Assembly (NCBI GenBank): GCA_965116025.1
Contig: OZ220480.1
Coordinates: 288,001 to 352,000, forward strand
Direction of reading: 5' to 3'
DNA length: 64,000 nucleotides
Source of the DNA: an uncultured candidatus Porisulfidus sp.
Lineage (GTDB): Bacteria > Pseudomonadota > Gammaproteobacteria > Poriferisulfidales > Poriferisulfidaceae
The notes beneath the pieces were generated by a model that saw only the letters and a list, made by a program, of their open reading frames with translations, was not told the origin of the DNA and did not search any database. The position numbers and the translations under genes were made by a program. This document shows, one piece after another, positions 32,222 to 35,964 of the stretch (its first letter is position 1; each line of letters starts with the position of its first letter).

Positions 32222-33130
32222 TCATCGCAACAGAGCTTCGAGCGCTCGCCGTTGCTCCAAATGCTTTCCCGAATTATCGCTTTTCAACCGTCGCAGATTG
32301 AGCGACTTCCATTGGACGGCGGGCAGGAGAGCCGCCTGCGGAAATCCGATCAATTCAAAGTCGGGCTCGGCATCGTGCAGCGAAAGCAGGAAAACCGCGA
32401 TATCGCCCGTGAGACGATCCTTGATGTCCGCATGCAAACGCGCGCGGGTTTCAGTGAGCTTTCTTCTCGTCACCTTCTCGCGCATCATTCCGGTGAGCTC
32501 ATCGCTATACAGAGCGTCATCGAATTTCGCGTTCGGCGCCAGCAACTCATGTATCGGCCGGCTGGAGCTCGCCACATATACCATGAACGTGCGAAACAAC
32601 GCGTCCGTGACTCCTTCGTTCTTGTAAAGATGCATGATATCGAAGAGGTCGCGCGGGTGCTGACGGTCGAGTGTCGCGTACATCTTGCCCGCATAGAGAT
32701 CCTCGAAGGCGAGGACGTTCATCTCGACGAATCCGAAACGATCCATCACCGCGTCGGACACATCCATAGCAACCGGTGGATGCAATGCCCCGCGCGCTAC
32801 CGGGAATGTCTCGACCTTGATCCGCGAGCGTTCGTCCCGAACGATCATCCGCGTGTCGATGTCGCCTCGACCGACAACGCGTTCCGCTCTCTCGGTCGGG
32901 TCGCGCTCGGTAATAGCGAACGCGATCCGGTCAAGAGTCTCATCGATATCCCGGAGTGATTTCTGGCGGTCCTCCACCGGCAGGTATGTGAGATCTATAT
33001 CGGCGGAGAATCGGGGCATGTAGAAGAGATTGATCGCGGTGCCGCCCTTGAGCGCGAAAACCTCCTCCTTGGCGATATGCGGCAAGACGCTCAGCAACAA
33101 CCGAACTTGCGCAACGTAACGCTCATGCAT
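32222..33130 (-). CDS. AbiEii nucleotidyltransferase toxin (second copy)
   Basis: FALKGGTAINLF, DIDL, AGKMYATLDRQHPRDLFD; start overlaps the antitoxin stop (ATGCATGA). Confidence 0.88.
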   Translation of the reverse strand: MHERYVAQVRLLLSVLPHIAKEEVFALKGGTAINLFYMPRFSADIDLTYLPVEDRQKSLRDIDETLDRIAFAITERDPTERAERVVGRGDIDTRMIVRDERSRIKVETFPVARGALHPPVAMDVSDAVMDRFGFVEMNVLAFEDLYAGKMYATLDRQHPRDLFDIMHLYKNEGVTDALFRTFMVYVASSSRPIHELLAPNAKFDDALYSDELTGMMREKVTRRKLTETRARLHADIKDRLTGDIAVFLLSLHDAEPDFELIGFPQAALLPAVQWKSLNLRRLKSDNSGKHLEQRRALEALLR

Positions 33131-33721
33131 CAAAATCCACCTCGGCCTCGCCCTTTGGCACCATATCCCTCGGCACGTAAATCCGATACACGGGATGAAG
33201 CTTTCCACCGACCACGAGGGCGCGCGGGCCCGCTCCCAAATCAATGCGCGAAACGTCAAGACGCTTGCGCCACCGATGCCTGTGCTTGTCCGCGAAAACG
33301 AAGAACAGCCGGCGCACTTTCACGCTTCTGCACAGCGTGAGCAATTCCATAAGCCTCTCCGGCCGCAACATCGTTAGCCCCTCGAAAATCTTGTCTAGGT
33401 TGTCGAAGCTTGATCGCTTCGGAAGCTCGTCGAGCGCCTCGAGGATCGCCCGTTCTGGAGAGGAGGCCCGGACCGGCCACCGCCACACGCTCACCGTCCG
33501 GCCAACCTCACCGACATCACGGTCAGCGTCTTCTATTCCAGTCCGATCACCACCGAAGAGTCCACTCCGATGCAGAATAATCGTGTCCCGTGTTGGCAAC
33601 CTCTTCATCCATGGCGGAACATCGCCATAAATGATGGGATGGTTCGCCCCGCTTCCCTGCTTGGCCTTGAGCGGGCACAATGAGAGTACAACCAACCCAT
33701 CGCGAAAGCGGGACGACCCTT

Positions 33722-34768
33722 ATGAAGCAGACTCCATATCAACTCGCCATCGCCCATCTGGGCGTGGACCTGGGCAAGCGGGCGTTTCACGCTTGCGGGA
33801 TGACGCGCGCCGGCAAGATCGTTCTGGAGAGGCGCTTCACGCGGGCTCAGCTGGAACGCTTCGCGGAGGAGCTGCCGCCATGCCGGGTCGGGCTGGAGGC
33901 CTGCGGCGGCGCGCATCACTGGGCGCGGCTGTTCCGGCGTCATGGGCATGACGCGCGGCTGATGGCGCCGTCCTTCGTGAAGCCGTTCGTGAAGTCGAAC
34001 AAGAACGACGCGCGCGACGCGGAGGCGATCCGCGAGGCGCGGAGCCGTCCGAGCATGCGCTTCGTGCCGGCGCGGACGGAAGCCGAGCAAGCGATCCAGC
34101 AATGCCATCGGACGCGGGCGCGGCTGGTGCGGAGCCGCACCCGGCTGGTCAATCAGTCGCGCGCGTTCCTGCAGGAGTACGGGATCGTCATGCCGAAAGG
34201 GATCGGGGTCTTTCGCGCGCGGCTGCCGGAGATCCTGGAGGACGGCGAGAACGGCTTGCTTCCGGAAGTCCGCGAGGCGCTGGCGGAAGGTTACGAGGAG
34301 GTGCGGGAGCTGGACCGGCGGGAGGGGCGTTGCCGGGCGCGGATCCAGGCGCATGCCGAGGCCGACCCGGGCTGTCGGCGGCTGATGACGATCCCGGGCA
34401 TAGGCGCGCTGTCGGCCAGCGCCCTGGTCGCGAAGCTGGGCGACGGCAGCGAGTTCCGCGACGGGCGGGAGGCGGCCGCCTACCTCGGCCTGGTTCCGAA
34501 GCGGTATTCCACCGGCGGAAAGCCGAGGCTCGGAGGGATCAGCAAGCGGGGGGACCGCGCCTTGCGCGGCCTGCTGATCTTGGGCGCGAAAGCGGTGTCG
34601 CGGGTCTCCGACTAGCGCGAGGACGCGCTCGGCAACTGGCTTCGCGGCCTGCGCGAGCGCCACCACGACAACGTGGCGGCGGTCGCGTTGGCGAACAAGA
34701 ACGTCCGCATCGCCTGGGCGCTGCTCCGGCGCGGCGGAACCTATCGGGAGGAAGCCCGCATGGCGTGA
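33722..34768 (+). pseudogene. IS110 DEDD transposase/recombinase with one nonsense codon
   Basis: GVDLGK, LEACG, KNDARDA, TIPGIG, STGGK..LGGISKRGD. TAG at 34613-15 is followed in frame by ...AVALANKNVRIAWALL to TGA 34768. Confidence 0.92.
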
Positions 34769-35018
34769 GGCTTCCCTCCGTATCCCGGCGGGCTTCGCCC
34801 GCCGATCGGTTGCGGGGAAGAAGCGAAAGGATGGCGGAACAGGTCGGACCGACGCTCCGAGAGCCTGGTGTTGACATAGGCCTTCGAGGCCGTACAAATG
34901 ATAAGGCCGGAGCGTGCGGAACCCATCGGGGCCCGGGAGGCGACGTCCTCCCACCGAGAGGCCGGATATATGTGCGCGGCCGATCGACCGTCGCCTCAAG
35001 CTTCCGACTTGCAGGGAG
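34769..35018 (+). ncRNA. Predicted bridge RNA / seekRNA region of the IS1111-type element
   Basis: Hairpin 34786-34804; stem ACGCTCCG/CGGAGCGT (34852-59/34908-15) enclosing an internal loop and hairpin GGCCTTCGAGGCC; second loop with GGGAGG/CCTCCC hairpin. RNA ends are not defined. Confidence 0.7.
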
Positions 35019-35964
35019 GGGGCGAACCATATAAGTAAACGCGTGACATGCCCAGTTTCAGGTAGTGGGCGAAGCCAGCCAGATCAAGAGCGCTTTCACC
35101 GCCCAGGTGCACGTCGCGCTTCATGATCCACTGTAGCGAGAGCAGAGGAATTTCCCAAGATGCTTCAGCCCTCCCCTGCGCGCCCTCAGGCAAAGGGCGG
35201 CGATAAACCCCTCGGATGACGCGCTCCATCCATCCGCGAGAAACATAGCCGTGGAGAGATTTCGGATCGATGCCTTGCGCCTTGATCCACGCGGCATCAG
35301 CCATGAAACCAGGCGGAACCTTGTCCAAAAGGCTTTTTAGCTTTGATGTCTTTCGATGACCATTGACCATCTAAATGGAGAAGATTCGAAAAACCTTTCT
35401 TCGAGAATATCACCGCTATTATGGCAAAACTTTGCCGTTCCAAGCTCGAGCTCAGGACCATGGCTTTGATTTTTCGCCATTGATGATCCCGCGAATTCCT
35501 TGTTTTCCTCCGCGCGAGGGCGGGTGCGTAAGGATCGATCCTTTATAAAGTCAAGATTTTCCTTAGTCTTCCACCATGCCCGGCAGATCCTGTTGCTTCG
35601 TGACCGCCCGAGGCAACGCTTTGAAGCACGTCATGCCTCGCCAGCTCCCAAACCCACGGCATTCACCACTCGGAAGGCGGCCAGCCGGTTAGCCTCGCCA
35701 TCACCCATGTGGCGACCCAGCTGTCCCATAAGAAATCTCACCCCCCCCACTCGACCCGTCCATCGCTCACGCTTGCGCCCTGAAGACGATATATCGGTAG
35801 TCGCTCACGGGAAAATCAGATGCCGCCCCGTGGCCGCTTCCTTGAATCCAATAATTGTAAGTGACGGCCATCTTGGTGCCTGATGATACAATGCGGGACT
35901 ATTGATAGTTGACAGCCCGAGCGGAAAGACGCTCCGCGAAAGTTGCGGTCTTGACACTTGTTGA

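Follow-up and report, generated by a model that had tools for sequence, protein, structure and literature searches.

A probable two-loop guide RNA gene in an IS1111-group insertion sequence of candidatus Porisulfidus

We analysed a stretch of 64,000 nucleotides (nt) from the genome of an uncultured candidatus Porisulfidus sp. (the window), in which an insertion sequence (IS) of the IS1111 group, IS110 family, carries a transposase gene followed by a long non-coding region. A first-pass annotation of this DNA had placed a guide RNA of the seekRNA or bridge RNA type downstream of the transposase gene, with a first loop for the target and a second for the donor, and our analysis bears this out: judged from sequence, the region is very probably the guide RNA gene of the element, encoding a two-loop RNA at about 34842-34985. 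Direct support comes from the anatomy of the IS, the two-loop structure and its covariation, the correspondence of loop 1 with the target half-sites and of loop 2 with the IS ends, and insertion without duplication. The element and its parts, all on the plus strand, are as follows.

33632-35033, plus strand: whole IS1111-group insertion sequence (IS110 family), 1402 bp; this exact span is common to seven full copies
33625-33631, plus strand: left half of the target site, CCATAAA, a 4/7 match to the guide GTACAAA
33632-33638, plus strand: left terminal extension TGATGGG, 7 nt, kept in 7/7 copies and in seven same-genus relatives
33639-33650, plus strand: left subterminal inverted repeat ATGGTTCGCCCC, the perfect reverse complement of 35019-35030
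33722-34768, plus strand: transposase gene, 348 codons, interrupted in the window copy (Pfam PF01548, PF02371)
34613-34615, plus strand: in-frame TAG at codon 298; copies L002-L006 have Q at this codon
34787-34803, plus strand: GC-rich hairpin just 3′ of the stop codon (RNAalifold columns 19-25/29-35)
34842-34985, plus strand: predicted guide RNA core of about 144 nt with two loops, enclosed by GGTCGG/CCGATC (34842-47, 34980-85), from RNAalifold and a covariance model
34867-34878, plus strand: 5′ strand of the target loop (loop 1), hypervariable; its reverse complement TA^TGTCAACACC reads the right flank's top strand
34879-34891, plus strand: inner hairpin of the target loop, GGCCT-TCG-AGGCC (helix 5; 5/5 pairs with compensatory changes)
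34892-34903, plus strand: 3′ strand of the target loop, comprising GTACAAA (left-flank sense), TG (+1, +2), AT (IS left-end positions 3-4) and A, assigned from per-position counts
34919-34929, plus strand: 5′ strand of the donor loop (loop 2); the reverse complement of CCCATC (34922-27), GATGGG, equals IS left-end positions 2-7
34930-34963, plus strand: inner stem-loop of the donor loop (helices 7-8; 8/11 pairs with compensatory changes)
34964-34974, plus strand: 3′ strand of the donor loop; ATATA equals the last 5 nt of the right end, with TG across the inferred circle junction
35019-35033, plus strand: right subterminal inverted repeat GGGGCGAACCAT (35019-35030) with the 3-nt extension ATA, from the copy alignment
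35034-35043, plus strand: right half of the target site, AGTAAACGCG, a 6/10 match to the guide TGTCAACACC, with a mismatch at +1

Ends and transposase of the insertion sequence

Alignment of the copies with their flanks gave a conserved span of TGATGGG-ATGGTTCGCCCC ... GGGGCGAACCAT-ATA, with a perfect subterminal inverted repeat of 12 bp and terminal extensions of 7 nt on the left and 3 nt on the right, a 3-nt right extension being usual in the IS1111 group. The non-coding DNA 3′ of the transposase gene amounts to 265 nt (34769-35033), compared with 90 nt 5′ of it (33632-33721). As described in the passages of the literature drawn on here and below, members of the group have subterminal inverted repeats of 7-17 bp (PMC11208160), a long non-coding region downstream of the gene and a transposase of 330-350 amino acids with a GL-P----S(t)G motif (PMC11187229), and the member ISEc11 has a 7-bp left extension and adds no bases upon insertion (PMC11187229). 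The window element agrees in the longer downstream region, in the length of the repeat and in its short terminal extensions.

Two independent checks define the insertion point. The unoccupied paralogues (n = 3, same genome) of the site used by copies L005 and L006 read ...CATTG^TATCGAAAC..., and the occupied site reads ...CATTG^[IS]^TATCAAAC...; likewise, the uninterrupted 285-residue orthologues of the AbiEi antitoxin, whose gene is split by the window copy, read RVHFYG in the same genus, and the abutted window flanks read RVY|FYG. From the empty paralogous sites and the AbiEi orthologues it follows that no bases were duplicated or lost at insertion; the same comparisons agree with the site-specific, orientation-specific insertion free of target duplication that marks the IS1111 group. 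Boundaries of 33631-35030 with a 5-nt ‘CCATA’ duplication, with which we had started, were dropped on the same evidence. With the ends inferred here, the predicted circle junction reads ...GAACCATATA^TGATGGG..., i.e. ...GAACCATATA^TGATGGGATGG..., and the loop-2 string ATATATG matches ATATA^TG at 7/7 positions; the junction proposed in the first-pass annotation, GAAC-CATAAAT, had been built on the wrong IS ends.

The window-copy transposase, read with X at the stop, matches both IS110 domains, the N-terminal DEDD/RuvC-like one (PF01548, 3.3e-19) and the C-terminal Tnp one (PF02371, 5.4e-24), and the intact paralogue P0001 matches the NCBIfam model NF033542, ‘IS110 family RNA-guided transposase’, with 339.9 bits against a cut-off of 140. 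Its length of 348 residues and its motif GLVPKRYSTG fit the IS1111 description, and the T-G of this motif aligns with S-G of the ISCro4 chain. In a sequence search of solved structures with this transposase, the nearest chains were the ISCro4 and IS621 transposases (E ~5e-7; 5.5e-7), over the C-terminal domain only; the N-terminal domain aligned to no solved chain, and no structure from the IS1111 branch was found.

Copies L002-L006 encode intact 348-residue transposases, and that of L007 is frameshifted and already out of frame before codon 298. Position 34613 is C in all covering Logan contigs (six from run X1, two from run X2) and T in the window; since contigs collapse the seven copies of this multi-copy IS, they neither confirm nor refute the TAG. 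The window copy is probably non-autonomous and could be served in trans by the five intact paralogues. Repair of the interrupted codon, suggested earlier as a route to a programmable recombinase, is not needed given five intact transposases in the same genome, and the intact natural copies would allow an assay without a repaired gene.

Structure and covariation of the downstream RNA

The loop strands picked out by the first-pass annotation, GGTGTTGACATA (34867-78), GTACAAATGATA (34892-903), GAACCCAT (34919-26) and ATATATG (34966-72), are present at these positions and form the strands of two internal loops in an RNAalifold consensus. This consensus was computed from 11 sequences, namely five distinct copies from this genome and six same-genus relatives (66-73% amino-acid identity), and comprises 68 pairs. 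At about 144 nt, the size of the core fits the long form of IS1111-type seekRNAs, described as 145-170 nt (PMC11187229).

A covariance model built from the 11 relatives (R1), the check that the first-pass annotation had called for, gave a full-length match downstream of the transposase gene at 85 of 88 related loci; loci L030, L041 and L090 had no match at E <= 1, and that of L090 ends 30 nt past the gene. In the model alignment pairing extends to 93.6% of cells, and compensatory changes occur in 30 of 35 pairs; 0/500 column shuffles reach these values, and pairing falls to 29.5-39.9% when partners are slid by one to three columns. Within the host genome, R1 matches ten places including the window, eight of them intact RNAs and two degraded (L012, L013). 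Folding of the single sequence is weak (z = -2.09, with 3/200 shuffles folding as well), and its minimum free energy structure departs from the consensus in loop 2; for this reason the structure was taken from the alignment.

Two further elements lie outside the core. In the conserved hairpin at 34787-34803, which has no T-run, the pair at columns 24/30 is compensatory (GC 6, CG 4, UG 1), and a long-range helix joins 34772-34821 to the stretch immediately preceding the right inverted repeat. Both may bear on the processing of a long RNA.

Guide strands and the DNA that they match

Among the seven copies nearly all variation of the non-coding region is confined to the two loop-1 strands, and the same two stretches are hypervariable in seven same-genus relatives (66-73% amino-acid identity), whose stems and loop 2 are conserved. 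Reverse-complemented, the loop-1 5′ strand corresponds to the right flank from the insertion point onward; the 3′ strand follows the left flank as far as the insertion point and goes on with TGAT, the first bases of the IS. Examples are L101, with guide ^TGAGCCTGCC and site ^TGAGCCTGAA; L102, with guide CTCAG^TTTATCAACC and site CTCAG^TTTATCAAAT; and L005, with guide TTATCG^TATCAAAT and site TTATTG^TATCAAAC. The unpaired loop strands match both target strands, with the top-strand complement lying 5′ of the bottom-strand complement, the orientation reported for IS1111-type seekRNAs, in which the two matches overlap in the target (PMC11187229).

We scored this correspondence on 84 elements in 58 guide classes. 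The 85 model-matched loci and the seven copies from this genome make 92 elements, from which eight were dropped: L020, L022, L045, L051 and L064 have no inverted repeat by the rule applied, L096 and L047 lie at a contig end with no left flank, and L085 has a spurious repeat. Guides matched their own flanks at a mean of 12.14 of 16 positions, compared with 8.14 +/- 0.19 for shuffled pairings (0/10,000 as high); within the genus (10 classes) the values were 11.60 and 9.14 +/- 0.53 (0/10,000). The direct match level was 7.3/9 and 4.7/7. In a fixed-register table of guides and sites, own-genus guides stood at the top, alone or tied, on their own site or on one occupied by a copy with the same or a closely similar guide, with the exception of L004 and L007.

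The guide of the window copy encodes approximately (GT)ACAAA^TGTCAACA(CC), not the target GTGTTGA-CAT-TTGTAC predicted earlier, and its site, CCATAAA^AGTAAACGCG, matches at 4/7 positions on the left and 6/10 on the right. Since only nine of 13 core positions match the present guide in fixed register, the window copy looks like an off-target insertion; the relaxed-specificity event proposed in the first-pass annotation is upheld as an imperfectly matched insertion, by a different pairing. The A at +1 is original, as it lies in a Phe codon (TTT) kept in 4/4 AbiEi orthologues, and a candidate ancestral T at this position was rejected for the same reason. Copy L002, whose guide is identical to that of the window copy, is followed by a partial second copy, and the outer flanks of the pair, TAACAAA^TGTCGCCC, contain a contiguous 9-nt match, ACAAA^TGTC. 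The genome holds no site with fewer than two mismatches to the predicted 13-mer, seven with two and 114 with three, so that both insertions of this guide class would be near-cognate events.

The window-copy guide might instead have drifted, or been gene-converted from another copy, after insertion at a site that was then cognate, in which case the insertion was not off-target. The left flank of L007, GCTATTG^, fits an L004/L005-type guide (GTTATTG/GTTATCG) better than its own, which suggests that flanks or guides were exchanged between copies, and L001 and L002 have the same guides despite an overall identity of only 98%. We nevertheless regard this history as unlikely: the window site still agrees with the present guide at 9/13 positions, for which we estimate a chance of ~1e-3 by a binomial calculation, the same guide finds its contiguous 9-nt match in the outer flanks of L002, and a genome without any site at fewer than two mismatches fits insertion into the best available near-cognate sites.

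A finer map was drawn from fixed-register counts over 63 classes (58 for positions +1 to +4 of the loop-1 3′ strand). This strand matches the left flank at -5 to -1 in 48-59 of 63 classes and no further. Its +1 equals the first IS base in 58/58 classes and the first base of the right flank in 54/58; +2 follows the right flank (48/58) more than the IS (22/58); at +3 the IS is followed in 51/58 classes and the flank in 17, and at +4 the IS in 50/58 and the flank in 14. Changes at +3 keep step with those of the IS end in no fewer than two lineages, the TACT group (A to C) and L053 (A to G). In the donor loop, which matches the IS ends, the 3′ strand reproduces the last 5 nt of the right end exactly in 63/63 classes, covarying as ATATA, ATACA and ATGTA; its +1 equals the first IS base in 62/63, and its +2 follows the target in 51/63 and the IS in 18/63. 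The reverse complement of the loop-2 5′ strand agrees with the left end at positions 3-7 in 53-63 of 63 classes and at position 2 in only 9/63.

Position 2 of the IS left end is accordingly matched by the crossing guide strands in 9/63, 18/63 and 22/58 classes, and all three strands follow target +2. Relatives outside the genus (L021, L025, L042, L079 and others) have A at this position (TAAT, CAAT, AAAT, TACT), mostly unmatched by their guides. In this genus position 2 is G and agrees with the guides; what looks like a conserved mismatch is a feature of relatives with TAAT, TACT, CAAT and AAAT ends, and might favour one direction of strand exchange over the other. A core of 2 nt, with heteroduplex resolution, was considered as a candidate model of the crossover.

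This map is reminiscent of the handshake guides of IS621, core-adjacent dinucleotides that pair with non-cognate DNA after strand exchange and whose pairing with cognate DNA inhibits exchange (PMC11208158, PMC13626964). We tentatively suggest that IS1111-type guide RNAs possess handshake-like positions, mirrored with respect to IS621, and that in this small genome such a guide RNA is diversifying in place, five loop-1 versions occurring in seven copies, six of which have intact or near-intact transposases of 96-99% identity. A literature search pairing ‘handshake’ with ‘IS1111’ returned only two IS621 structure papers and a review; in the parts of these sources that the search covered, IS1111 appears in PMC13626964 in the reference list alone, and in the review in general text, references and a table. 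With moderate confidence, the pattern may be new for IS1111 RNAs; donor-end matches or IS1111 loop maps may already be present in the supplements to PMC11187229 and PMC11208160.

By analogy with studied relatives (PMC11187229, PMC11208160, PMC11208158), the RNA would be transcribed and bound by the 348-residue DEDD/Tnp transposase with its GLVPKRYSTG motif, and the IS would circularise, joining ...CCATATA to TGATGGG.... Loop 1 would then bind the target and loop 2 the donor, in the same geometry. The base at +1 would be common to target and IS, +2 would follow the target, and +3 and +4 the IS left end; the loop-2 5′ strand would pair with IS left-end positions 3-7, and its 3′ strand, which has the same sense as the final 5 nt at the right end, would cross the circle junction. 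The two loops would thereby hold donor junction and target together, with strand exchange presumably at or next to the shared +1 base, and the transposase would use the RNA to join the circularised IS and the target without duplication.

Several points weigh against reading the region as a guide RNA gene. The RNA is predicted here from DNA, and the alignment behind the covariation counts is fitted to the structure. An Rfam search of 33400-35300, at E values up to 10, gave eight matches, all far below their gathering scores; the best reached 22.2 bits against a gathering score of 79, microRNA, CRISPR-DR and snoRNA matches were at chance level, and none of the eight was to a seekRNA, a bridge RNA or any other RNA family of an IS. 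A promoter scan of the integrated copy found no sigma-70-like promoter, and the putative promoter that arises when the ends are joined, TTGCAG-17-TATGAT, agrees with the consensus, by reading, at only 8/12 positions; a terminator scan gave a single terminator-like site, within the transposase gene on the minus strand, which is as many as shuffles give. The contigs of three runs, a form of data that drops rare forms, contained neither a circle junction (a back-joined contig) nor an empty site. The window copy's own site matches at 10/17 positions, with a mismatch at +1; guide and site also fit poorly in L007 (1/7 and 2/10) and on the left of L003 (2/7), and in L004 they fit only with 1-nt shifts. 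Across the wide family, fixed-register matching of the right half is weaker, at 17-42 of 63 classes per position, probably from register shifts in the loop columns. Finally, guide and target are passed on together among relatives, which makes the shuffle tests overstate how independent the cases are; the argument is carried by the direct match level and by the many different guide-site pairs.

Part of this evidence would also suit an account in which the downstream structure is a structured IS end that binds the transposase or stabilises the transcript, with no guide role, and in which the likeness of loops and flanks comes from co-inheritance of IS variants whose site preferences are set by the protein. 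Predicting the RNA from DNA leaves room for such an account, as do guides and targets common to relatives by descent, and the RNA region overlaps the right end that the transposase must recognise. We consider it very improbable, however, because transposases that are 96-99% identical (L001-L006) occur with differing loop-1 strands, and the sites differ in step. The hypervariable positions are, moreover, exactly the unpaired loop strands, with stems kept by compensatory changes; the direct match level is that given above; and the same architecture has been shown experimentally to act as a guide in ISEc11, ISPa11 and ISKpn4, as described in PMC11187229.

The pairing scheme of the first-pass annotation, in which the 5′ strand of loop 1 has the sense of the left flank and reads it with G-U wobbles, the right flank falls to the 3′ strand and the core is CAT, can be dismissed almost entirely: the resemblance of GTGTTGACATA to ACATCGCCATA in the window copy (six identities and four transitions) and the presence of CAT or ATG in all four loop strands speak for it, but with wobbles allowed it is at chance across the 58 guide classes (6.64 vs 6.55, 1224/5000 shuffles as high), its CAT belongs to the inverted repeat instead of the crossover and is not kept in the 5′ strand of other copies, and it contradicts the strand order reported for IS1111 seekRNAs (PMC11187229). 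Its count of six identities, four wobbles and one mismatch against the left flank is correct by reading. Without wobbles, the 5′ strand against the left flank gave 5.00 vs 4.83 +/- 0.12 (444/5000 as high). On the right flank, the 3′ strand in reverse complement scored 4.57 vs 4.41 (418/5000). Insertion sites are related to the loop-1 strands, as had been expected, by the swapped assignment (12.14 vs 8.14), and the original pairing is at chance. As to the junction core, the CAT of the loop-1 5′ strand is absent from other copies (GATACA, GATCTA) and that of CCATA lies in the right inverted repeat; both the ‘CCATA’ overlap and the ‘CAT core’ arise from the inverted repeat (…CCAT) and a chance likeness of the left flank (…CCATAAA). 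Reprogramming by that strand assignment would fail.

Known systems, copies and host genes

With a guide RNA gene as the preferred reading, this is an ordinary representative of the RNA-guided recombinases, a class that has been characterised recently, and nothing known is overturned. It resembles the seekRNA elements ISEc11, ISPa11, ISKpn4 and ISPst6 (Siddiquee et al. 2024, PMC11187229) in its downstream non-coding region, its subterminal repeats and its 7-bp left extension, and likewise in adding no bases, in a transposase of ~340 residues with GL-P----S(t)G, in strand order, in overlapping matches and in an RNA of 145-170 nt. A natural re-direction of guides between close relatives, as here, is described there for ISEc11 and ISXne4 (PMC11187229). 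In contrast to those elements, five guide versions coexist in one genome here; and whereas the main text of PMC11187229, its supplements aside, describes only target matches, we also find donor-loop and handshake-like matches.

The bridge RNA of IS621 (Durrant et al. 2024, PMC11208160; Hiraizumi et al. 2024, PMC11208158; Hiraizumi et al. 2026, PMC13626964) likewise has two internal loops, target first and donor second, and its loops read both strands around a shared crossover; the IS621 recombinase, too, joins a DEDD (RuvC-like) domain to a Tnp domain. As with its handshake guides, short core-adjacent positions here follow the non-cognate DNA. Unlike in IS621, the RNA lies downstream and the sides are reversed; and where IS621 is described with a CT core dinucleotide and subterminal repeats of 2-3 bp, the repeats here measure 12 bp and a single position, +1, is shared by donor, target and guides. 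In Pseudomonas putida, ISPpu9/Ssr9 (PMC12288879) offers a further parallel: this IS110-family element is multi-copy, has a gene for a small RNA downstream of its transposase gene and occurs with extra solo copies of the RNA. In the present genome, by comparison, the two solo RNA remnants (L012, L013) are degraded right-end fragments. The seven copies with their five target-loop versions, together with about 80 relatives on the same scaffold, form a natural data set and a loop-to-DNA map for the IS1111 branch. The within-genome guide diversity and the per-position map should be useful as such, and the handshake-like pattern is a testable lead.

The transposase is 43-73% identical to relatives in Gammaproteobacteria, Acidobacteriota and others, and the best identity to plasmid-borne relatives, a comparison outside which the named ISfinder members lie, is ~50%. 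In an order-level survey at E <= 1e-40, the transposase lineage occurred in five of 53 genomes including its own, all of one genus (4/15 others). The next-closest relatives (43-53% identity) sit in distant phyla, which suggests, from sequence comparison, that the lineage has spread horizontally.

The host genome, 2.02 Mb in one contig, has 14 matches to the element, seven full-length copies (92-100% identity) and seven fragments. Five different loop-1 versions are carried by the full copies, and those of L001 and L002 are identical at 98% identity overall. Fragments L009-L013 are too degraded for guide-flank scoring and enter no count. At L002/L008 (G000:C1:1413622-1415669) a full copy is followed directly by a partial copy starting at IS position 755, whose right end reads ^TGACGATCC...; the outer flanks of the pair fit one original insertion, and the arrangement suggests either a tandem duplication of part of the element or insertion at a pseudo-site within a sister copy. 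The solo right-end fragments L012 and L013 (G000:C1:429096-429274 and 1475587-1475761) start inside loop 1 and retain both loop 2 and the right end; what is left of loop 1 in each does not match the right flank of that fragment.

In the window, the IS splits abiEi, the antitoxin/regulator gene of AbiEi/AbiEii, a toxin-antitoxin pair of type IV that lies on the minus strand (32222-33695 and 35034-35370). The antitoxin parts are as follows.

33123-33631, minus strand: disrupted AbiEi antitoxin gene, C-terminal part (Pfam AbiEi_3, 4.7e-37)
35034-35370, minus strand: disrupted AbiEi antitoxin gene, N-terminal part (Pfam AbiEi_3_N, 1.9e-21)

Three same-genus genomes have uninterrupted AbiEi orthologues of 285 residues. 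The toxin gene abiEii (32222-33259) adjoins, and its frame of 345 codons is still open. Both junctions of the window insertion are present without differences in contigs of two runs from one study, which are not independent support, as these runs may be the assembly's own source. Contigs of runs X1-X3 contain no joint across the IS, that is, no empty site, X3 having no cover of the AbiEi flanks; the only joint found in them is a 272-nt skip inside the transposase gene, from the degraded fragment L011.

A repeated site 2 nt 5′ of the start codon of small coiled-coil paralogues (~100 residues; a weak CCDC90-like Pfam match of 21.7 bits, under the cut-off) is the target of L003/L005/L006-type guides. 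It is occupied near positions 270690, 1108105 and 478900 and empty near 1697475, 595865 and 254716 (G000:C1). Insertion at this site parts the gene from its upstream region, and at L005 the start codon is ATA.

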